Source of the DNA: an uncultured Nitrososphaerota archaeon
Lineage (GTDB): Archaea; Thermoproteota; Nitrososphaeria; Conexivisphaerales; DTJL01
Direction: 5' to 3'
NCBI GenBank assembly: GCA_963842885.1
Contig: CAWJIE010000003.1
Span: forward strand, 320,001-384,000
Length of the DNA: 64,000 nt
The notes under the pieces were generated by a model. The model did not search any database. It saw only the letters and a list, made by a program, of their open reading frames with translations, and was not told the origin of the DNA. Each line of letters begins with the position of its first letter. Positions within the stretch are counted from its first letter, which is position 1. Both the position numbers and the translations under genes were made by a program. Positions 40,528 to 54,284 of this stretch are shown one piece after another.

Positions 40528-40617
40528 TGCCGCGGGCAGGATTTGAGCCTGCGACACATCGGTGACTGATGTCGATGAACTTCAGCCGATTGCTCTCCCA
40601 GGCTGAGCTACCGCGGC
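40528..40617 (-). tRNA. tRNA-Phe(GAA) with 16-nt intron at 37/38 (40564-40579)
   Basis: GCCGCGG/CCGCGGC acceptor stem, ATCGG/CCGAT anticodon stem, intron TCAG pairs with CTGA (relaxed BHB); T-loop CTCAAAT. Confidence 0.93.
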
Positions 40618-43897: not shown

Positions 43898-44142
43898 CGC
43901 ATTGACGAGAATCGTGCCGGCGCTTTAATCTTTCTGAGGGCGAAAGACCGGTTGCGGGCTTCTGGAGCGTCGAACCCGCACCTCCCGCACGGTCTCCTGC
44001 TAGCTCCGCTCGATTTACAGCTCCTGCGCGCCCCGGACGGCGGATGGCGGCACGTTGCGACTTGAACGTCGAAGCGGGGGCCGACGGCCTTCTGGCGAAC
44101 ATCTTTAATAGCTTGAGAGGACATCGAGACCTAGAGTACCAT

Positions 44143-44745
44143 TTGGACTCTGGCTTGGCTCTCAGGACCAAGCGCCTCCTCCTGAGAGACTTCAGAGAGG
44201 AAGACTGGGAATCAGTCCATGTATATGCGTCGGACCCTGAGGTGGTAAAGTATGTGTCTTGGGGTCCCAACACGGAGGAGGAGACCAAGGGCTTCGTCAG
44301 GCAGGCCATGAAGTGGGGGGAGGAGAGGCCCAGGCTGCACTTCGAGCTTGCCGTGATATTGAAGGCCGATGATACACTCATCGGTGGGTGCGGGTTGAAC
44401 TTGTCTAGCTCCCAGAATCGCGAAGGCTACGTAGGGTATTGCTTCAACAGGATATACTGGCACGCAGGATTCGCCACTGAAGCCGTCGAGACGCTGATAC
44501 TCTACGGCTTCGAGCAGCTGGGACTCCACAGGATCTGGGCCACCTGCGACCCCGACAACTTGGCCTCAGCGCGGGTCCTTGAGAAGGTAGGGATGAAACG
44601 TGAGGCGCAGCTTCGGGAGAACATGTGGATGAGGGGGAGGTGGAGGGACTCCTTGATCTACGCGGTGCTTGACAGGGAGTGGTCGGACCTACGTGGAAGA
44701 GATGCCGCCAAGCGGAAGGAGAAGGATGCTGCTGGCGTGGCCTAG
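44143..44745 (+). CDS. GNAT acetyltransferase, RimJ/RimL family
   Basis: LRTKRLLLR, YWHAGFATEA, NLASARVLEKVGM. Confidence 0.92.
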   Translation: MDSGLALRTKRLLLRDFREEDWESVHVYASDPEVVKYVSWGPNTEEETKGFVRQAMKWGEERPRLHFELAVILKADDTLIGGCGLNLSSSQNREGYVGYCFNRIYWHAGFATEAVETLILYGFEQLGLHRIWATCDPDNLASARVLEKVGMKREAQLRENMWMRGRWRDSLIYAVLDREWSDLRGRDAAKRKEKDAAGVA

Positions 44746-44795
44746 GGAGGCTGGGCCTGTGAACAGGCTACCGGCCGGGCTGCGGCAAGGATGAT

Positions 44796-45779
44796 GTGCC
44801 GAGGCGGTTGAGCTTGGATTCCGTAGCTGGCGTCGACATCGGGGCGACGCGGCTTAGGGTGGCATTGGGTGACGGCTCGGGGAAGATCGTGGCCAAGGCC
44901 TCTGAACGAAGCTCTCATCGGGCTTCGCGGACGGCTTTGGGGGAACAGGTCAAGGAGTCTCTTTCGCGGCTGCTCAAAGAGCACGGCTCATCAAGGCTAA
45001 GATGTATTGGCGTGGCCTCCACCGGACCCCTGGACAGAAGGGGCGGAATCGTGGACCCGGCGAACCTTCCCAAGCTGGGTTTCGTGCCGCTCGCGCGGCC
45101 CCTAATTGAAACCTTCGGTTCCGATGTCCTTCTAATCAACGATTGCTCCGCAGCGGCTGTCGCTGAGAAGGAGATTGGCTTGGGGAAGGGATTCGACAAC
45201 CTGGCGTACGTTACCTTGAGCACAGGCATCGGCGCAGGAGTCTTCGTCGATGGCCGCCTCTTGGTGGGAAAGGACGGAAACGCGCATGAAGTCGGCCACA
45301 TGGTCATAGATCGCGAGCAGAGGCTCGTGTGTGGTTGTGGTAAGGGCGGGCATTGGGAGGCATACTGTTCGGGACGGAACATCCCACGACTGGCTCCCCT
45401 TTTACTGGACGACGCTGCTGACGCCCGCAGGGTGGGGGCCCTCACGTCTCCGCAGATCTTCGAGCTTTCAAGGGGCGGCGACAAGGCCTGCGCTAGGGTG
45501 ATCCGGGAGGTCGGACTTCTCAACGCGATGGGCTTCGCCAACATCGTCGACGTCTACGACCCGGAGCTCGTCGTCGTGGGTGGTTCCGTGGCGCTCAACA
45601 ATGTCGACCAAGTGCTGGGGCCAATCAAGGAAAGGATTGGCGACCTAACCAGGAACAGGGTCCCGCCCGTCAAGCTGACGGAGATGGGGGAGGATGTCGT
45701 TCTTTCGGGAGCCCTCCTGGCGGCACTTCACGTAGCGGACTATCACGAGCTGAAGCCTTGGACCTATCCTGCAGACTAG
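44796..45779 (+). CDS. ROK family sugar kinase
   Basis: VDIGAT, NDC, STGIGAG, EVGH, CGCG..GHWE. Confidence 0.93.
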   Translation: MPRRLSLDSVAGVDIGATRLRVALGDGSGKIVAKASERSSHRASRTALGEQVKESLSRLLKEHGSSRLRCIGVASTGPLDRRGGIVDPANLPKLGFVPLARPLIETFGSDVLLINDCSAAAVAEKEIGLGKGFDNLAYVTLSTGIGAGVFVDGRLLVGKDGNAHEVGHMVIDREQRLVCGCGKGGHWEAYCSGRNIPRLAPLLLDDAADARRVGALTSPQIFELSRGGDKACARVIREVGLLNAMGFANIVDVYDPELVVVGGSVALNNVDQVLGPIKERIGDLTRNRVPPVKLTEMGEDVVLSGALLAALHVADYHELKPWTYPAD

Positions 45780-45783
45780 GTGT

Positions 45784-46134
45784 TCAGACCGAGCGAATCA
45801 TCGTCAAGAGCATCTTGAACCTCTTCGCAGCGCGAAGCGAATGCGGCCTGTGCGCGGGTAGGATGATGCCGTCTCCCTGCCCTAGACGGTTGTCGGTGCC
45901 GGCTACGTTGACGTCCGCCTCGCCTTCCAGGATGTAAACTAGGGCGTCGAACGGTGCTGTGTGTTCGCTGAGGCCTTCTCCCTGATCGAATGCGAAAAGC
46001 GTGACGGAGCCCGCCTTGCCTTCAACGATGGAACGACTTACAACGGAGCCAGCTTGATAGGGAACGAGAGAGGAAAGGTTGACCCTTTCGCCGCGGGAGA
46101 GCCTGCCTTTCTTGTCAGACCTCCCTTCGACCAT
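45784..46134 (-). CDS. Cupin-domain protein
   Basis: FAFDQGEGLSEHTAP.DA, PHSL. Confidence 0.92.
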   Translation of the reverse strand: MVEGRSDKKGRLSRGERVNLSSLVPYQAGSVVSRSIVEGKAGSVTLFAFDQGEGLSEHTAPFDALVYILEGEADVNVAGTDNRLGQGDGIILPAHRPHSLRAAKRFKMLLTMIRSV

Positions 46135-46197
46135 GCTTTGCCCTCTGTCTTTGTGTGAGCTGGGAACCTAAAAGCGTTTGTCCATTATCGGAGCTTG

Positions 46198-46950
46198 TCA
46201 GCGGAAGTCTTGGAGGCCTCTCCTTTCTTTTATGAGGCCGAGAACCATGTCGAAATACGTAACGAGGGCGCGGCGAAACTCGACCTCGTCCCAGTCGGCC
46301 CTTGCATTCTCAAGAAACGACTCCACTTCGTTGAATTGCTTTTGACTCTGCTCACCGGAGAACGAGAGGTACTTCTCGTTCTTGCTTTGCATCTCTTCAA
46401 TCCCTTCGGTGAAACCCCTGCGCCGGAGGGATGCGACGGCGAAAGCGTTTCTCACCAGCAGGACGGCATCAACCACGGAATCGCCGGATGGCCTCTCGGA
46501 CACCCAGTCGGCAAAGAATCTCTGCGCATGCTTCAGCTCCCGACCCGACATCGAGGCGAAGACGATGTCGTCGACGATGATGTTCTGGAGGTGGCTGAAC
46601 ACGTCGACAAGAGCTGCTGACTCCCTTTCGTTGAGCCCGTCTCTTTCCGCCGCCTCCCTCAAGACACCGTCGACGATATCAGAGACGTGTGATGGCGACC
46701 CTTGCTCCGTATGGTAGATGTGCGCGAGCTCGTGAAGGATAAGCCCTCCGAGCATCTCCGAGTCGAGGGCCCACTCGGCGATGACTATGCTGTGTTCATC
46801 TCCATCACTCTTGGCGTATCCCATTATCTTCAGGTCAGGGTCCACCTCAACTGTGACCTTGGAGGTTATCGGATAGCCAGCTTTGCCCATTCGTTGAATC
46901 GCCCACTGAAGCGTTCCGGTAAGAGATGTGTCTCCAGGCTCTTCTCCCAA
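46198..46950 (-). CDS. HExxH zincin-like protein (DUF5781-like)
   Basis: LILHELAH.....SPSH followed by NIIVDDI. Confidence 0.75.
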   Translation of the reverse strand: MGEEPGDTSLTGTLQWAIQRMGKAGYPITSKVTVEVDPDLKIMGYAKSDGDEHSIVIAEWALDSEMLGGLILHELAHIYHTEQGSPSHVSDIVDGVLREAAERDGLNERESAALVDVFSHLQNIIVDDIVFASMSGRELKHAQRFFADWVSERPSGDSVVDAVLLVRNAFAVASLRRRGFTEGIEEMQSKNEKYLSFSGEQSQKQFNEVESFLENARADWDEVEFRRALVTYFDMVLGLIKERRGLQDFR

Positions 46951-47333
46951 GAAGTGGTGACCTTAGCGTCGTCTGCACAGGCTTCCAGATAAACACGACG
47001 CCGTTCATCTACGTGAATGGATTTGGAATCGGGAAGGGGAAGCGGACGAGGCCGGCTAGTGTTGCTCGATATCGTCGAGGTATCCTGTTTGCTCTTTAGC
47101 AGGCCCTCTTCTTTGGTCAGAAGGGACCACAGTTTGATGTCATCTTCGGAATTCACAAGAATGTACTGCAAGGAATACGCCCTGATGCCAACTCTGTCCA
47201 GCGCTGCAGGATAGGCGAGGACCTTTCTCCCATACCTGTCTGTCGTAGCCTCCGAGATTGGTTGACTGTATCTCCGTCTTAGCTTCTCGATCTGAAGCTC
47301 CACCTCTCCAAGCTCTTCGGGATTCGCGAGCAC
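46866..47333 (-). CDS. Hypothetical protein (3' end uncertain)
   Basis: Strong SD GGAGGTG before GTG; first ~85 aa protein-like; tail overlaps next gene by 85 nt. Confidence 0.5.
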   Translation of the reverse strand: MLANPEELGEVELQIEKLRRRYSQPISEATTDRYGRKVLAYPAALDRVGIRAYSLQYILVNSEDDIKLWSLLTKEEGLLKSKQDTSTISSNTSRPRPLPLPDSKSIHVDERRRVYLEACADDAKVTTSWEKSLETHLLPERFSGRFNEWAKLAIR

Positions 47334-47453
47334 CCTCCACCTCCCCCCGTGTTCCTCGGACTAAATCGTGCGGTATAACTCGGACAGTCCACAATTCCTA
47401 GGCTTCTAGCTAGAACCCTTTGCTTTCTGGAGAAACGACGCGCCCGGCAGCGT

Positions 47454-47948
47454 TTAGGCCCTGACGCCCAGCAGCTCAAGGAATCTCTTGAAGTCTGCAT
47501 CGCTGACCCAGTCGACCTTTAGGTACTTGACCAGCTCCTCGCCTTCGTAGCCTATTCTCCTCGCCTCCTTCAGGGTCGCTTGGTAGGCTTCAATCTCCGT
47601 AGCGCGGTCCACATAGTCATATCTTTCGTCGAAGAGCTCCTTTCCCTCGCGAAACTGCCTAACGTGGACCAGCTCATGGATGACGTCGAGGTAAAGGTAT
47701 CTCTCGTCGGCCGTCTCTAGGTAGGGCAGGCTGACATGGAGATCGCCGGTTTCTCCGTCGACATGCATGTAGCCGCGACGTGAGGCGAGCACGACCCTGA
47801 TTCCAGCGAGGACCTCCTTCGTGTTCCTTCCGAATATGTCCTCCACCGCATCCACCCTGTCAAAGCCGCGGAAGACTTCGGCGAACTCGTATGTCCCGAG
47901 CTCCAAGTCTCTTCTGATTTCGATTCCCAAGTCCAGGGCAGGATTCAC
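47454..47948 (-). CDS. Small HExxH metalloprotein
   Basis: DVIHELVHVRQ, downstream TEIEAY third-ligand motif. Confidence 0.8.
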   Translation of the reverse strand: MNPALDLGIEIRRDLELGTYEFAEVFRGFDRVDAVEDIFGRNTKEVLAGIRVVLASRRGYMHVDGETGDLHVSLPYLETADERYLYLDVIHELVHVRQFREGKELFDERYDYVDRATEIEAYQATLKEARRIGYEGEELVKYLKVDWVSDADFKRFLELLGVRA

Positions 47949-48710
47949 CTCGACTCCGCGTCTGTCGAGAGCACAAACTTGCTATAGATCGCTCTGAAGC
48001 CGCGCTTGAGGTAGAACCCTTCAACATGGTCCTCCGCGAAGGTCTGCAGCACGAGCGTCAGCCCCTGCTCCTCGGCCTGGCCGGAGGCATAGCTCAACAT
48101 CCCGCTGGCCACTCCTGACCTGCGGTATTCGGGCACCGTCCCGACGCAATAGGCGCCCAGCAGCCCTCCATGGCGGAAGAGCGCCATTTCACCCACGACC
48201 TCCTTCCCCCGCCTGGCCAAAACCAGGGAGGCGTCTTTGTCCTTGGCTGCTCTTCTTGCAGCAGCCTCCACCTCTGCCTCCTGGCCGCCGTCGCCGTAAA
48301 AGGACCGAAGATAGGCCGAAACCCACTCATGAACGTCGGACACGACCCGCATGATTTCGACTGACCCGCTCTCCCTGGGTACCTCCGGCCCCGCCCGCCA
48401 TTACCTCCATTGTGTCCAAGGCGACGTAACCGGCCGACTCCAATCTCGTTCTCAATCCAAGAAGACGCGGGTCATCGATCACGAAGAACGAAGGCCGGAC
48501 ACCTGCTTTCGTGAACTTGCTGAGGGCGTGTTCAAAAACCGAATCGACGTCCGACACGTCGCCCATTATAGTTGCGTGGTTGAAGAGAGGCTCAGGGAAA
48601 CTCGTCGAGGTGATGACGTAGGCGCCTTCACCAAGCCAGCTGACGTCTCCCCAGTGGGACCACCATGAGACTTCGTTGAGCTCCTGCTCTTCGATGCCGA
48701 CGCTAGTCAA
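47945..48710 (-). CDS. Two-domain GNAT acetyltransferase, +1 frameshift near 48360-48400
   Basis: N half in ORF 48327..48710; C half VGTVPEYRRSGVA...FYLKRGF in ORF 47945..48352. Confidence 0.82.
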
Positions 48711-49926
48711 AGATGTTCACGCCCAGGATGGCGCTGGCCTTTGCTATGGAGTCGTAGTACGCATCCAGCCTCTGAAGGTTGACTTCATTTGCGCCCTCCT
48801 CGACGAGCTTGGAGAACCGGGCGATGGCGTGAGGCGTGTCGAAATCGTCGTTCACGGCTTCGATGAATGACCGCAGAGCTAGGTTGGGGCCTTCCAGAAT
48901 CGGCTCGCGCGAAGAGCCTTCCTTAATCTTCTTCGCCTTGGCCTTCAACCTCCAGAACTCCTCGTCGACATGACCCAGCTTCGATTCGTCGTACTCCATG
49001 TCCTCCCTGTAATGGGAGAGCAAGAAGTACATCCTGAGCTGGCTAGGGCCGAACTTCGAAAGGGCCTCCCTCACGGTGACGATGTTCCCCTCCGACTTGG
49101 ACATCTTCTTCTTGGCGATTGTCAGCAGACCCGTGTGCATCCAGAACCTGACATAGGGCTTCAAACCCGTAAGCGATTCGGCCTCGGCTATCAGAGATTC
49201 GTGATGCGGATAGATGAGCTCCCGGGCGCCTCCATGGATGTCGTATTGGGGACCCAGCTCCGTAAGAGAAACTCCCGTGTCCTGAATGTGCCATCCAGGG
49301 CTTCCTGTCCCCCACGGGCTTTCCCAGCGCTGAACTGATGTGGGCGAAGACCTCCAAAGAGCGAAATCTGTGAGGTGCCTCTTCTTCGGGGATATCTCGA
49401 CAGGCCTGAGGGTCAACTCCTCGGCTGTAAGGTGCGAAAGTTGGCCGAACTCGGGCACGGTGGAGGTGTCCAGATAGACGTCGCCGTCGGTGACGTAAGC
49501 GTGTCCATGTCCGATGAGGCCTTCGACCTCCTTGATCATCTCCTGGATGTAGTCGGACACCTTCGGGTACTTCGTGATGCTTGTGACGTTGAGCCTTGCG
49601 GTGTCCTGGATGAAGGCGTTCGCATATCTCTGGGCGTATGCGTGCGGGCTCAGCTTTTCCCTCTCGGCGCCCTTTACGATGCTGTCGTCTATGTCTGTCA
49701 TGTTCATGATAAAGGTAACTTCGTAGCCCTGGTGAATCAAGTAACGGGCCACCGTGTCGAAGAAGATGGCCGTCCTTGCGTGGCCGACGTGCATGTAGTT
49801 CTGGACGGTGGGACCACAGACGAGCATCTTCACCCTCCTCCTGCTGAGGCTTTCGAAGGTTTCTATCCCTCCTCTGAGCGTGTCATAGATGCGCAGTCCA
49901 GCAGGCAGGCCCGAATGACGCCTCAT
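48703..49926 (-). CDS. Cysteinyl-tRNA synthetase-like protein lacking the C-terminal anticodon-binding domain
   Basis: CGPTV, HVGH, DFALW, PGWH, PHHE, KMSKS, DDFDTP; ends right after the DALR bundle. Confidence 0.88.
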   Translation of the reverse strand: MRRHSGLPAGLRIYDTLRGGIETFESLSRRRVKMLVCGPTVQNYMHVGHARTAIFFDTVARYLIHQGYEVTFIMNMTDIDDSIVKGAEREKLSPHAYAQRYANAFIQDTARLNVTSITKYPKVSDYIQEMIKEVEGLIGHGHAYVTDGDVYLDTSTVPEFGQLSHLTAEELTLRPVEISPKKRHLTDFALWRSSPTSVQRWESPWGTGSPGWHIQDTGVSLTELGPQYDIHGGARELIYPHHESLIAEAESLTGLKPYVRFWMHTGLLTIAKKKMSKSEGNIVTVREALSKFGPSQLRMYFLLSHYREDMEYDESKLGHVDEEFWRLKAKAKKIKEGSSREPILEGPNLALRSFIEAVNDDFDTPHAIARFSKLVEEGANEVNLQRLDAYYDSIAKASAILGVNIFD

Positions 49927-50024
49927 GCTAGGGTGGGCGTCGGAGGACATTAAAAGCATGCCCTATTCCTGGTCCGATGGAACGGGCCCGCTCTTTTTCT
50001 GCTGACGCGTTGCGATTCGTTCCA

Positions 50025-50126
50025 ATGCGAGTGAACTTTATCGGCATCAGGGTAACTGATTTGGAGAGGCCATTGGGATTCTGCAAGGAAGTCCTTGGTC
50101 TCACGGCCCACCTAGAACAGATATAG
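50025..50126 (+). pseudogene. VOC/glyoxalase N-terminal remnant
   Basis: MRVNFIGIRVTDLERPLGFCKEVLGL then stop at codon 34. Confidence 0.6.
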
Positions 50127-50154
50127 GGAGCCGTCCTAAGCTAGGTCGACAGAG

Positions 50155-50448
50155 ATGATCTACGAGAAGAGGCTCAACACTCTTCCGGAGCTGGCCGAAG
50201 AGCTGCGGACCTTGGATTTCGACGGAGGGATCAGAGTGCAGGGAAGGTACGGCGGGGAGCCTTGTTTCATCTTCATCACAAGATTTGGGGCCAGCTTCGC
50301 AATGGCTCTGTACTCGGGCAAGCGAGGGACTTCGGACTCGGAGGTCCCCGACCGAAGGCTGATGTTGAAGCAGTACGAGGAGATCGGGCCACTTATGAAG
50401 TTCCTCGAGGGTGAGGCGCTGGACCCCTTGGAAGCATATTCCTATTGA
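50155..50448 (+). CDS. Hypothetical protein
   Basis: 97-aa ATG ORF, globular composition, TATA-like GATATAG ~30 nt upstream. Confidence 0.65.
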   Translation: MIYEKRLNTLPELAEELRTLDFDGGIRVQGRYGGEPCFIFITRFGASFAMALYSGKRGTSDSEVPDRRLMLKQYEEIGPLMKFLEGEALDPLEAYSY

Positions 50449-50493
50449 CCTCAGGCAGACACGCTTAATAGGCGAACGAAGGAAGTTTGAGGT

Positions 50494-51012
50494 ATGAGTT
50501 TCTGCCCTTCGTGTGGCAGACCCGCCGCAGACAACGCCATCTTCTGCCCCAGCTGCGGTTACAACCTGCAGACCAAGCCCCAGGGCTCTCAACAGCCTCC
50601 GGCTTCTGCGTCGCTCCCGGTCATGGCAGGGTCTGGCGGAAGGATGTCGCGGCCTGTCGGGGTGACCGTCATCGCGGTCCTCGACGCTCTCGCGGGGTTC
50701 TTGATGCTGCTGGGGGGTGGAGCCATTCTGGGGGTTGGCAGTTTCATGGGATCCTTCGGCGGGCCGATGAGGGCGTTCCACGGACTGCTCACCGGCTTCG
50801 GTGTCCTAGTCGTGGTCGTGGGGCTGGTGACTATCTTTCTCGCATGGGGGATATGGACAGGGGCTCGTTGGGCATGGACTGCGGCGCTCCTGATTGCCAT
50901 CCTGAGCGCGGTGCTTCATTTGCTGAGTTTCAGCGTATTCGTCCTTGCTATCAATGTGATAGTCATCGTGTACCTTCTGCAGCCCAACGTCAGGCTGTAC
51001 TTCAAGCATTGA
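50494..51012 (+). CDS. Zinc-ribbon membrane protein
   Basis: FCPSCG...FCPSCG, RPVGVTVIAVL, four TM helices; GAGGT SD. Confidence 0.88.
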   Translation: MSFCPSCGRPAADNAIFCPSCGYNLQTKPQGSQQPPASASLPVMAGSGGRMSRPVGVTVIAVLDALAGFLMLLGGGAILGVGSFMGSFGGPMRAFHGLLTGFGVLVVVVGLVTIFLAWGIWTGARWAWTAALLIAILSAVLHLLSFSVFVLAINVIVIVYLLQPNVRLYFKH

Positions 51013-51373
51013 ATCGCTGGAATCCTGCCACGTTTTTGACATCTATCGTATTGGCATGAGCCATACCTAGAGTATGGATGGGTGGAAGTGAGGGCCTATC
51101 CCGTCATCCAAGCGGCCTTCATCCTGGGGAACGGCTCCACCATCAGCCAAGGCTTCCACTTCGACGATTTGACCGTGCCGGCGGGAAGGGTGACCCGTTC
51201 TAGCTGGAATGTTTCCGTTCCGCTGGCTTTGATGGGGGCTGCCAACCTGACAGCCTACCCGAGGATTAGGGGACCGATATCGGAGGCGTCACCCACCTAT
51301 CGGGTACCCCAGGGAAGGCCGCATGCTCCGAACAAGATTAAAGGACGGGAGAAGAACGTCTTAGGGACCGGCC

Positions 51374-51931
51374 ATGGTGATTGCGGGGAAGGCGGTGTAC
51401 CTTCGTGGCATCGAACGAGAGGACTTGAAGCTTATGCACAAGTGGCTCAATGACAGCGAAATCATGCAGTGGGCACGTTCCCAGCCTGACAACGTTGCGT
51501 CGATGGAGGCTGTGGAGAAGGAGTTCGAGCTTGACCTGAAGGGCGAGAACCCCCATCGGTGGACTTTCATATTGGCGCAGGTGGGGACGGAAGAGCCCAT
51601 AGGATGGGCGTCGATTCGCTGGTGGAGGCCGTTCAGCACGACCGTCGACATCGGCCTGGTAATCGCGGAGAAGGGGCTGAGGGGGAAGGGAATCGGAACT
51701 GAAGCCACGATGCTCCTCGCAGATGAGGCCTTCGACCAGCTGCACATGCACAAGGTCGAGCTGTGGACGAGGGCTGACAACACAGCGGCCAGGAAGGTCG
51801 CGGAGAACTGCGGTTTCAGGTTGGAAGGGACGGACAGAGAGGTCGTATTCTTCGATGGGAAGTACCATGACGGCGTTTCTTATGGCGTTCTCGAAGACGA
51901 GTTCAGAAAGGCAGCCGCCAAGACAGGATGA
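51374..51931 (+). CDS. GNAT acetyltransferase, RimJ/RimL family
   Basis: VYLR.IE.ED, RGKGIGTEA, N.AA......GF..EG. Confidence 0.92.
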   Translation: MVIAGKAVYLRGIEREDLKLMHKWLNDSEIMQWARSQPDNVASMEAVEKEFELDLKGENPHRWTFILAQVGTEEPIGWASIRWWRPFSTTVDIGLVIAEKGLRGKGIGTEATMLLADEAFDQLHMHKVELWTRADNTAARKVAENCGFRLEGTDREVVFFDGKYHDGVSYGVLEDEFRKAAAKTG

Positions 51932-52078
51932 AAGTTCGTACCGTGTCTGCCCCGGCCGGATTGAGGAGGTCGATGAAGTGCAGACGATGCGAGCCTTGAA
52001 AGGGTCCTTCGTGCCGTGATGAAACAACCACACAATGCTAATGTATTCCTTCGATAGTCGCATAGAGCGTGAGAACGA

Positions 52079-52453
52079 GTGGTGGACAACTGCCTGGAAT
52101 GTAGCAAGATTGGCATGACCACGGAGTGCCAGTACATGGAGTTCCCTGAAGGGATGCATCACTACTTCGACGAGAAGGTCTGCTCGTTCCACTATTGGCT
52201 CCTCTACGTGCGTCCCAGGAAAGGGTGGGAAGACTATCTCAGCTTCGAGCAAGCGGACGGAGCTGCCGCCGGATACCATGTCACCCTTCCTCCTGAGGAA
52301 GTGATAAGAACTGCCATCCGTGGGGACGTCGCGCCCGTCATCGGTTCCATTGGCGGCAAACAAGCTACTCAGACTTCTGATGGTGGTCAGGGCCAGCCCC
52401 CTAGGTCGAGCAGGGACCAGACGACAGCGCAGCCGCCTTCATCTCAATCCTGA
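52079..52453 (+). CDS. Hypothetical protein with Cys/His cluster
   Basis: CLEC...C...HH...CSFH; low-complexity tail. Confidence 0.5.
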   Translation: MVDNCLECSKIGMTTECQYMEFPEGMHHYFDEKVCSFHYWLLYVRPRKGWEDYLSFEQADGAAAGYHVTLPPEEVIRTAIRGDVAPVIGSIGGKQATQTSDGGQGQPPRSSRDQTTAQPPSSQS

Positions 52454-52536
52454 GCAATCGTGGGAAGAGAGCAGCTCACCTAGAGCTTTGAACGGATTTC
52501 TTCCTTTGTGGTTCTGATGGGGGGCCAGAGAGCACG

Positions 52537-53010
52537 TCAGGCCCCTCTGGTCCCAGACGGCAAAGCAAGGGACACATCCGGCGAGATTGCACAGATGGCT
52601 TCGAGCCGTCGGGCGGAGCTGGCAAAATAGATTAGATGAGACCCGCATCGGCAGTCGGACGATCCGAAGTGGGGCACCGAGCCGTCGGAGGTTTTCTTCA
52701 GAATCGTCGCAACTTCGCACTCGGTGCGTGAGCGCCAGACCACTACGCTAGTCGGAGTGACCTCCCGCCGCGCAGTCAAGTAGTCTATGTGCCATCTAAC
52801 CGTCTTTGTGCTTGCGACATGCCGCGCTACGCGCTTGCGGAGGTTGGCTCGGGCGGAACCGACGTAGACGTAGCAGCCCTTCCTGAAAGGCAGACAGCCC
52901 AATGATCCCACCGGAATCATCTCCTCGTGGTTGAAGACGAGAGTCAGGGCGTACACACCGCTGCCAAGAAGTTGGCTCAGTTCCTCGGAGGTCATCGGGA
53001 TGGAGGTCAA
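52537..53010 (-). CDS. GIY-YIG (Uri) nuclease, DUF123 family
   Basis: GVY, YVYVGSA, RVARH, WHIDYL, FGSSDC.C.SHL. Confidence 0.92.
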   Translation of the reverse strand: MTSIPMTSEELSQLLGSGVYALTLVFNHEEMIPVGSLGCLPFRKGCYVYVGSARANLRKRVARHVASTKTVRWHIDYLTARREVTPTSVVVWRSRTECEVATILKKTSDGSVPHFGSSDCRCGSHLIYFASSARRLEAICAISPDVSLALPSGTRGA

Positions 53011-53139
53011 AGGTGCCTGTATTGAACTCTTGTCCCTATGGGTGAAAGACGGAATAGGAATCGGCCGTCGTCAAAGCGAAGAGGTCGGACCCGTGCCATG
53101 CAAGGCGATGTAGTCTCGTTTGACTCGGAACCCCGATGT

Positions 53140-53454
53140 TCAGCCCAGGGCTTTCTTGATTTCTGCCGAAATCTCGGCATCAGTCTTTCCGTCGGTGGAG
53201 ATGCCGAGCTCGCTGGCGGCCTTGATCATCCTGACGCGCGCGTCGGAGGAAGGCTGGCTAGAAGTAGTCGACGCCGAAGCCTTGAGTTTCTGGACCTCCA
53301 GCTCGGACTCGACCTTCGCCTTCTGGAACTCGCCCTGGGCGCGTCCGAGGGACTTGGCCAAATCGGGGATCTTGCCGGCGCCGAAGATCAGAACGACTAC
53401 GATGACGATCACTATCAGCCATTCCGAACCTTGCAGCAGCATTGGTACGAACAT
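53140..53454 (-). CDS. tatA: Twin-arginine translocase TatA/E
   Basis: EW, LIFGAGKIPDLAKSLG...EF.K. Confidence 0.93.
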   Translation of the reverse strand: MFVPMLLQGSEWLIVIVIVVVLIFGAGKIPDLAKSLGRAQGEFQKAKVESELEVQKLKASASTTSSQPSSDARVRMIKAASELGISTDGKTDAEISAEIKKALG

Positions 53455-53669
53455 TCTCTACACCTTACGGTCAGAGGCGCGTGCTATTATTTACAGATAT
53501 GGATCGCAAATGTTTCAAGAGACCGATATGCAGACATCCATTATGGATTCCGACGAGGGAAGGGGATGACAAGTCCGGACTGTCTGGTAAGACAGGGAGG
53601 AGTCCCTTCTAAGCCGAATCGGTGCCCCGAATTCACGGCTCGCTTATAAGGGCCAACCGAAGGATACTT

Positions 53670-54284
53670 GTGGACCAAGCCTTGTTCTCAAGGATCAAGG
53701 TCTCCGGGGCGTTGATATTCCTGGCAACCACTCAGTTCCTCCTTGGGATGCTCTTGGCCGAGACCCTTTATCCGGGATACAGCGTCTCCGCGAACTATAT
53801 CAGCGATTTCGGAGCCACGTGCCGCGCTACTTGCACCATCGTTCAACCCTCCTCGCTGATATTCGGTTCATCCGTCTTCTTGCTCGGAGCCCTTCTGGTC
53901 CTAGGAGCCTACCTTTTCAGACAGGGGTCCGGATCGGTGCTCGTGCCCTTGCTTCTCGGAGTAACCGGCTTGGGAGCCATGGGAGTCGGCGTCTTCCCTG
54001 AAACGACAGGTGTGTTGCACGATGTCGTGTCATTGGTGGCATTTGTGGGAGGAGGGCTTGCCGCTGTTGCCTCCTTCAAGTTCTCTAGGCCCGTCCTTTG
54101 TTACTTCGCCGCAATTCTAGGAATGATGACTCTCGTGGCGCTGGTGCTGTACGCCTCCAGGATCTACTTGGGGTTAGGCGCAGGCGGCATGGAGAGGATG
54201 GTCGTGTTTCCGGTCCTCACCTGGGGGATCGGGTTCGGCGGCTATTTGACGGCAAGAACAGAAGACTCATTCGCGAAACATTGA
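53670..54284 (+). CDS. DUF998 membrane protein
   Basis: YPGYS...NYISD.G, GVGVFP, LH, GGMER. Confidence 0.88.
   Translation: MDQALFSRIKVSGALIFLATTQFLLGMLLAETLYPGYSVSANYISDFGATCRATCTIVQPSSLIFGSSVFLLGALLVLGAYLFRQGSGSVLVPLLLGVTGLGAMGVGVFPETTGVLHDVVSLVAFVGGGLAAVASFKFSRPVLCYFAAILGMMTLVALVLYASRIYLGLGAGGMERMVVFPVLTWGIGFGGYLTARTEDSFAKH

Follow-up and report, generated by a model that had tools for sequence, protein, structure and literature searches.

Among the closest described systems is the mycothiol pathway, in which the ligase MshC is derived from a cysteinyl-tRNA synthetase (CysRS) and ends after the helical bundle, the acetyltransferase MshD consists of two GNAT domains in tandem, of which the C-terminal one is active, and LmbE-type hydrolases are used. 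A ligase and an acetyltransferase with these same features recur in the window, by which we mean the whole stretch of 64,000 nucleotides analysed here (an uncultured Nitrososphaerota archaeon, assembly GCA_963842885.1, contig CAWJIE010000003.1, positions 320,001 to 384,000). They are encoded together with a HExxH zincin-like metallohydrolase and a small partner protein of 97 residues, orf97. We favour, with modest confidence, the reading that the four genes form an archaeal system with a tRNA-independent amino-acid ligase at its centre. In the best-supported version of this reading the enzyme would be a cysteine ligase that follows an MshC/MshD-like logic, has an independent origin and is not orthologous to MshC or MshD.

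The locus differs from mycothiol synthesis in several respects. The ligase and acetyltransferase genes are adjacent here, and the GNAT is often fused with the zincin. A search of this genome (G000, 87% complete) gave no PIG-L/LmbE (PF02585), the Pfam family to which MshB and Mca belong; a zincin would stand in the place of the hydrolase here. Among 41 related genomes this family was found in two, only one of which bears the module. We know of no counterpart of a dedicated 97-residue partner protein in the mycothiol pathway. A 2020 review states that archaea lack mycothiol as well as the genes for it (PMC7278568).

Other paralogs of aminoacyl-tRNA synthetases (aaRSs) have also parted from tRNA. 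The sections of PMC9437257 on such enzymes describe EpmA/PoxA, a paralog of lysyl-tRNA synthetase that acts with EF-P, and the amino acid:carrier-protein ligases; in these the tRNA-binding domain is lost and the amino acid goes to a protein or prosthetic group. The present system is similar to EpmA in that a small protein is predicted in the tRNA acceptor site. However, EpmA and the carrier-protein ligases are class II enzymes whereas the paralog here is class I, orf97 falls in no known family and shows no evident acceptor residue, and the GNAT and the zincin have no counterpart there. The same sections describe CysRS*, a second CysRS that lacks the anticodon-binding domain and exists beside the canonical CysRS (PMC9437257). 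It is linked to SelC* and SelB*, whereas a GNAT, a zincin, a small protein and no tRNA gene are found here. The locus consists of the following features.

47454..47948, minus strand: HExxH zincin-like metallohydrolase, 164 residues, with HELVH and an invariant downstream Glu in TEIEAY, joined to the GNAT as a fusion in other genera
47945..48710, minus strand: tandem GNAT acetyltransferase gene, with a 1-nt frameshift near 48381-48383
47945-48352, minus strand: C half of the GNAT, an open reading frame (ORF) of 135 residues that matches Acetyltransf_1/7/10 and carries RRSGVAS
48327-48710, minus strand: N half of the GNAT, an ORF of 127 residues with no Pfam match
48703..49959, minus strand: CysRS paralog without the anticodon-binding domain, 418 residues, or 407 from the ATG at 49926
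49960..50154, no strand: intergenic region of 195 bp between the partner gene and the ligase gene, presumably with divergent promoters and with no Rfam match or tRNA inside it
50155..50448, plus strand: small partner protein orf97, 97 residues, divergent from the ligase gene and in no Pfam family

A CysRS paralog without the anticodon-binding domain

The paralog matches PF01406 (tRNA-synt_1e) over residues 35-330 (3.3e-96) and DALR_2 over residues 365-414 in Pfam. With HVGH in the place of HIGH, and with KMSKS, it retains the class I catalytic domain of a canonical CysRS. The anticodon-binding domain is absent: the sequence runs on for 9 residues beyond the column of E. coli residue 388, as compared to 62-77 in 26 full-length CysRS sequences, 8-13 among the paralogs and 7 in MshC. 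This agrees with an earlier note on the window, which had described a CysRS-like protein that keeps HIGH and KMSKS and ends after the DALR bundle. The motifs TVQN, WHIQDT and PHHESL listed there are all present in the sequence as well. Across 33 paralogs there is no variation at C37, the HxGH motif, T77, W212, D216, H241, H242 or K274-S278.

The paralog is not the only CysRS of its genome. A full-length cysS of 467 residues with GLTVYSY, WHIECS, HHENE and KMSKS is found on contig C5, which answers a check that the earlier note had proposed. Truncated CysRS genes are present in 14 of the 41 related genomes, and 12 of these 14 also hold a full-length copy; the two that do not are 59% and 85% complete. 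A database search gives at least 120 clusters, the great majority of about 390-430 residues. Those that bear a name in their source are called cysteine--tRNA ligase and come from metagenome-assembled genomes of Thaumarchaeota/Nitrososphaerota. The score of the paralog against TIGR00435, the cysS equivalog model, is 366.4 bits at a cutoff of 340, which may explain this name. As a result many genomes seem to hold two CysRS enzymes, one of which is probably not a tRNA synthetase. Such paralogs are widespread in soil, peat and ammonia-oxidising Nitrososphaeria.

An alignment of 57 sequences (30 truncated paralogs, 26 full-length CysRSs from 21 Nitrososphaeria and 5 bacteria, and one MshC) reveals a changed metal site. 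We take the Zn ligands of the E. coli enzyme to be C28, C209, H234 and E238. The second Cys (C209) is Asp in all 30 paralogs, in none of the 26 full-length CysRSs and not in the one MshC, so that the canonical Cys/Cys/His/Glu set is not kept. The Zn site of the paralog is composed of Cys37, Asp216 and His241, with Glu245 added in most relatives. Judged from the alignment, Asp at the second position is diagnostic of the paralogs within the sample aligned, although the earlier note had held this change to be not diagnostic by itself. The paralog signature further includes CGPTV[QN]x where the TVY motif is expected, WHI[QE]D, GGA for GGG, and KMSKSEGN. TVQN was rejected as a diagnostic change because a Streptomyces cysS carries TVQ. 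The Leu at E238 (PHHESL) is confined to the genus of the window, with PHHEAL in one further database hit, while most paralogs keep PHHEAE.

In a maximum likelihood tree of 56 rows (LG+G4, quick search) a branch with an SH-aLRT of 98 separates the 30 paralogs from the CysRSs of Nitrososphaeria and from the single MshC, which comes from a C. striatum plasmid and forms a long branch. The deeper branching order of paralogs, CysRS and MshC is not resolved in this tree. The score of the paralog against TIGR03447, the MshC equivalog model, is 236.5 bits and falls below the cutoff of 485.1, and in the Protein Data Bank (PDB) the sequence matches CysRS (8qhp, 300.9 bits) better than MshC (3c8z, 187.5 bits). 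Orthology with MshC is therefore rejected on both sets of scores and on the separate clade. The fourth Zn ligand Glu is lost both in the window's genus and, in the alignment, in the MshC of C. striatum. The two differ in the second ligand, which is Asp here and Cys in MshC, and in charge: the one MshC is strongly acidic (net charge -37), whereas the medians are -1 for the paralogs and -5.5 for canonical CysRS.

Some relatives of the paralog were observed in other settings. In one genome of the same genus (L012, G001:C25, 1008-2214) the paralog is split across two frames; as this genome is 59% complete, faulty assembly could account for the split. A more divergent truncated paralog, with a frame of 394 residues, WHLQDV and PHHDCLE, is found in a class-level relative (L047, G039:C7:51600-54300). 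It is unlinked to the HExxH gene of the same genome (C3:50017-50475), and no match to the partner protein was found in that genome. In addition, 503 Klebsiella plasmid records contain a CysRS-like gene that covers query residues 22 or 40 to 410 (for example NZ_CP125127.1, 190691-191826), which is often unannotated or named 'DALR domain-containing protein'.

A conserved module with an acetyltransferase, a zincin-like protein and a partner protein

The end of the paralog gene overlaps the GNAT gene by 8 nt (TTG at 48710), and the stop of the GNAT overlaps the start of the HExxH gene by 4 nt (47945-47948). A tblastn comparison of the window proteins with 15-kb stretches around the loci of 11 relatives shows that the order paralog, GNAT, HExxH is kept in all 11, down to 42% identity, while the wider flanks are common to the genus only. 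In 8 of these loci the GNAT and the HExxH protein are fused as one ORF of 400-472 residues. A scan with an HExxH profile, with one genome per species, confirmed 569 stretches, and the best 80 were kept. All three genes are present in order in 40 of these 80 loci (6 fused, 34 separate), four loci end at a contig end beside the GNAT, and one has GNAT and HExxH without a paralog within 2.6 kb upstream. The same order in the loci of 11 relatives and in half of the scanned loci is more than chance, and the synteny that the earlier note had asked about is thus upheld. In total the ordered module is found in 51 loci, and the GNAT is fused with the zincin in 14 of them. All 14 relatives with a truncated paralog, and none of the other 27, have the HExxH gene.

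In 39 of the 40 ordered loci the partner gene sits immediately upstream of the paralog, and in the 41 related genomes it is found in exactly 13, those with the core paralog, always in this position. Across the class, the partner profile matches 50 of 301 genomes, including weak matches in three unpublished genomes (G230, G131 and G282) that enter no other result given here. The ammonia oxidation gene amoA was not found in the window's genome or in any sampled genome of its order. A looser version of the module is present in five amoA-positive genomes, two of which are single-contig; each has a canonical and a second CysRS. The frame of the second CysRS is 389-431 residues long, its end is overlapped by a GNAT of 231 residues, a partner-like protein of 82 residues ending in FAY is encoded about 1 kb upstream, and the HExxH gene lies 2-3 kb away. 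If cultured strains exist for the complete single-contig carriers, experiments may be feasible.

In the window the two halves of the GNAT occupy different frames, and the frame of the C half is open upstream of its ATG to about 48400. The earlier note was right about both overlaps; it had given a single ORF of about 255 residues, which the window does not contain. In the relatives the orthologs are single ORFs of 251-254 residues across both halves. Contigs of the metagenome runs X1, X2 and X4, all from one study, are one base shorter at 48381/48382, with all depth in support; run X3 does not cover the site. None of the 20 runs listed as containing the sequence is an RNA run. With one base fewer the two printed frames join into a GNAT of about 254 residues, in which the spacing of 22 residues from MEVM to HEW equals that of the ortholog in L028. 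Since the gene is intact in these contigs, and thus in the population, the break is due to faulty assembly or else is a variant confined to this genome.

An AF2 model of an intact ortholog (pLDDT 92.3) shows two GNAT-like halves. Among its Foldseek matches are the tandem GNATs VipF (9.5e-14), 3frm, 4ius and MAB_4324. MshD is matched at rank 12 by 2c27 (4.4e-10, TM 0.62) and also by 1ozp (2.3e-8); VipF, 3frm and 4ius are better fold matches than MshD, and a glucosamine N-acetyltransferase is matched as well. The two-domain GNAT of the earlier note, with MshD among its structural matches, is thereby supported. As in MshD, two GNAT domains stand in tandem and only the C half matches Pfam GNAT families. 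Residues R196, G199, V200 and A201 are conserved in the alignment, and they and RRSGVAS fit what we take to be the acetyl-CoA-binding loop. Together with the Pfam matches, this conservation favours an acyl-CoA enzyme. When the two halves were scanned separately against NCBIfam, no MshD model was matched and NF002959 (E 0.0025) was the only hit.

The HExxH protein has no match in Pfam or NCBIfam. Across 11 sequences H91, E92, H95 and E118 do not vary and E120 hardly does, a pattern that corresponds to the gluzincin motif. With the protein model (pLDDT 92.7) Foldseek finds nothing at E <= 0.001. VIA-align returns mostly zinc metallopeptidases at modest Z scores of 7.8-5, with matches that include the VgrG2b effector domain (7.8), selecase (6.8), jannalysin (6.6), BlaR1 (6.5) and SPRTN (6.3). 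The protein resembles the minigluzincins (selecase, jannalysin/abylysin) as a small soluble archaeal domain with HExxH and a downstream Glu, although these fold matches are weak (Z 6.8, 6.6 and 6.0; Foldseek probability 0.75-0.89). It differs from them in its size of 160 rather than about 110 residues, in its lack of a sequence-family match and in its fusion with a GNAT in part of the loci. Among 1.84 billion proteins the family comprises 260 representative clusters at E <= 0.001, either about 160-180 residues long alone or about 400-470 when fused, and its Atlas matches are unnamed archaeal clusters only.

Several further observations concern HExxH proteins. Tandem domains in two or three copies are found in P0155, P0163, P0164 and P0185, and two adjacent copies in one relative (G004:C181:1074-2090). 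At window position 47939, just inside the annotated start, a base is absent from the X1 and X2 contigs and from part of those of X4, which leaves the true start codon uncertain. Downstream of the module, at 46198-46950 on the minus strand, lies a gene for a DUF5781 protein (PF19093, 6.4e-12) that has an HExxH motif of its own, HELAH; its synteny with the module is limited to the genus.

The partner protein is strongly conserved. In 30 sequences D23, G25, R27, F40 and the C-terminal Tyr97 are invariant, and M1, Y3, E4, L20, D21, T42 and R43 are nearly so. Tyr at position 3 is replaced by Phe in three sequences, and the N-terminus is 2-8 residues longer in four. When ligase and orf97 were both entered as alignments, the predicted complex reached an ipSAE of 0.71 (runs 0.68, 0.72 and 0.71) against 0.00 for three controls, a score that is the model's own confidence. 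In calibration 58 of 80 solved complexes attained this mark, as did 2 of 110 mismatched pairs; as the input alignments are our own, this calibration is rough. Contacts agree between runs by at least 89%, and the pLDDT of the partner is at least 87. According to the model, orf97 would dock on the mouth of the ligase active site. The predicted interface comprises residues 1-4, 22-25, 27, 40-42 and 97 of orf97, and D81, W212, 235-241, 278-279 and the loop 164-180 of the ligase. Apart from the loop, these ligase residues line the active site on the side of the amino acid and of KMSKS. The loop carries an LRP motif specific to the paralogs, as compared to AGAR in canonical enzymes.

A further protein recurs beside the module. 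It has about 110 residues, a WCPHC motif and a weak Glutaredoxin match (E 0.02), and its gene adjoins 25 of the 40 ordered loci and 5 of the 11 relatives' loci, directly after either the HExxH or the partner gene. Among the 41 relatives it is found in 9 of 14 module-bearing and 0 of 27 module-free genomes. The idea of a thiol-related role, raised in the earlier note, gains support from this adjacency. The frameshift in the GNAT, the GNAT-HExxH fusions and the orf97 gene had escaped that note, whose observation is overall confirmed in part.

Proposed chemistry and competing explanations

Most likely, the paralog would activate cysteine as Cys-AMP at its retained Zn site. The cysteinyl group would then pass to a non-tRNA nucleophile, a step proposed from the loss of the anticodon-binding domain. 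Orf97 would dock where the acceptor end of a tRNA would sit. It could itself be the acceptor, or it could help to shape the acceptor site as an accessory or regulatory subunit; the acceptor would thus be a small amine or this partner protein. The tandem GNAT would acylate the product with acetyl-CoA, most simply on the amino group of the new Cys, as MshD does. The zincin would hydrolyse an amide, by which it would free the amine acceptor or release or recycle the product. The output would be a thiol-bearing compound or tag, linked to the glutaredoxin-like CPHC protein. For this archaeal group the module provides a concrete candidate for a thiol pathway based on cysteine, and one that can be tested. 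The literature searched, including passages of PMC2922099, PMC7278568, PMC9437257 and PMC8762117, holds no description of the module; supplementary files, which lay outside the search, might list such paralogs.

Several points weigh against this scheme. Each chemical step and the identity of the acceptor are what we infer from the genes, and the ligase-partner contact is a prediction scored by the model's own confidence. Since the Zn ligand set is altered from Cys to Asp, the amino acid may not be cysteine. The HExxH gene exists without the paralog in 35 of the 80 scanned loci, which by their record titles are mostly from Bathyarchaeia, Marsarchaeota, Micrarchaeota and Thermoplasmata. In this genome the CPHC gene (C3:118606-118902) lies apart from the module, and of the 14 relatives that bear the module, five showed no match to it. 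Three more points leave room for an RNA substrate. The core of the paralog is not more acidic than that of CysRS, so loss of an RNA-binding surface is not evident; net charge was tried as a test for lost RNA binding and does not discriminate. The GNAT model also matches, in Foldseek, the aminoacyl-tRNA-dependent transferases Sbb17 (1.5e-8) and MprF-type proteins. Finally, CysRS* of Desulfobacterales, as described in the sections of PMC9437257 cited above, has no anticodon-binding domain yet charges a tRNA.

On these grounds the paralog could charge a special tRNA, as CysRS* does with tRNA-SelC*, or a modified nucleoside, as GluQRS/YadB does, and the GNAT would be a Fem/MprF-like transferase that uses the aminoacyl-tRNA. 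Paralogous aaRSs that feed GNAT-fold ligases are a known theme (PMC2922099), and the near-neutral core would suit such a substrate. We nevertheless regard this as quite unlikely. The module contains no tRNA or Rfam match: none was found in window positions 44000-54000, and the nearest ARAGORN call is about 7 kb off. The genome has one tRNA-Cys(GCA), and ARAGORN finds no SeC, SelC-like or suppressor tRNA in it. Moreover, the C-terminal GNAT domain matches Pfam families of the acetyl-CoA type with the R-x-x-G-x-A loop kept, and the predicted position of orf97 would occupy the acceptor-end site. Lower still, at very unlikely, we place the explanation that the paralog is not a ligase at all and acts as a cysteine sensor or regulator or as a cysteine persulfide synthase, in a cluster that handles sulfane sulfur or redox signalling. 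Cysteine persulfide synthase activity has been reported for CysRS enzymes, the residues of the Cys-binding pocket are kept, and the neighbours are of thiol-redox type (the CPHC gene in 25 and a glyoxalase-family gene in 8 of 40 loci). However, the invariant HIGH and KMSKS motifs argue for adenylate chemistry, and the first Lys of the KIIK segment, which we take to be required for persulfide synthesis, varies among the paralogs (S/R/K/N). The GNAT-zincin fusion and the docking of the partner would also be left unexplained.

A further alternative is protein cysteinylation. Here a paralog of a class I aaRS would have taken on the cysteinylation of orf97, which would be a small protein dedicated to this role and would dock as a mimic of tRNA. 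The fused acetyltransferase-metallohydrolase would edit the tag: the GNAT would acetylate the added Cys, and the zincin would trim or remove it. This would resemble the EpmA/PoxA-EF-P pair or the carrier-protein pathways. We consider it rather unlikely, though less so than an RNA substrate. The strict co-occurrence and adjacency of orf97 with the paralog are in line with it, as are the invariant C-terminal Tyr in 30 of 30 sequences and the model, which puts residues 1-4, Tyr97 and D23/G25/R27/F40 at the mouth of the active site. The modification of proteins and carrier proteins by aaRS paralogs without tRNA-binding domains is known (PMC9437257). On the other hand, an invariant Lys is absent from the 30 orf97 sequences, and position 3 and the length of the N-terminus vary, so there is no obvious conserved nucleophile. 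The model output does not indicate a residue of orf97 that reaches the adenylate site, and a regulator or accessory subunit would yield the same contact. If cysteinylation of orf97 were true, a previously unknown protein-tagging or carrier-protein system would exist across Nitrososphaeria, ammonia oxidisers included. To our knowledge no paralog of a class I aaRS has so far been described to modify proteins, and with orf97 as acceptor this one would be the first.

Loci without the paralog and other neighbours

The HExxH loci without the paralog have recurrent neighbours of their own, for example in the Bathyarchaeia loci L118 (3050-4414, plus strand), L120 (1487-4977) and L125 (2107-4410). A well-conserved family of about 455 residues is encoded in 17 of the 35 loci. 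It has no match in Pfam, PDB or Atlas, and a comparison of its profile with that of the paralog showed no similarity (hhalign probability 0.8%). Sixteen of the 35 loci encode a GNAT of 310 residues with Acetyltransf_1 and Acetyltransf_18, 11 an MBL-fold protein and five a GT4 glycosyltransferase. Such loci may represent an analogous pathway with a different ligase.

Beside the ordered module itself, an M29 peptidase gene adjoins 18 of the 40 loci. Elsewhere in the window, at 40528-40617 on the minus strand, ARAGORN calls a 'tRNA-???' with a two-base anticodon, which is probably a misread intron-bearing tRNA.

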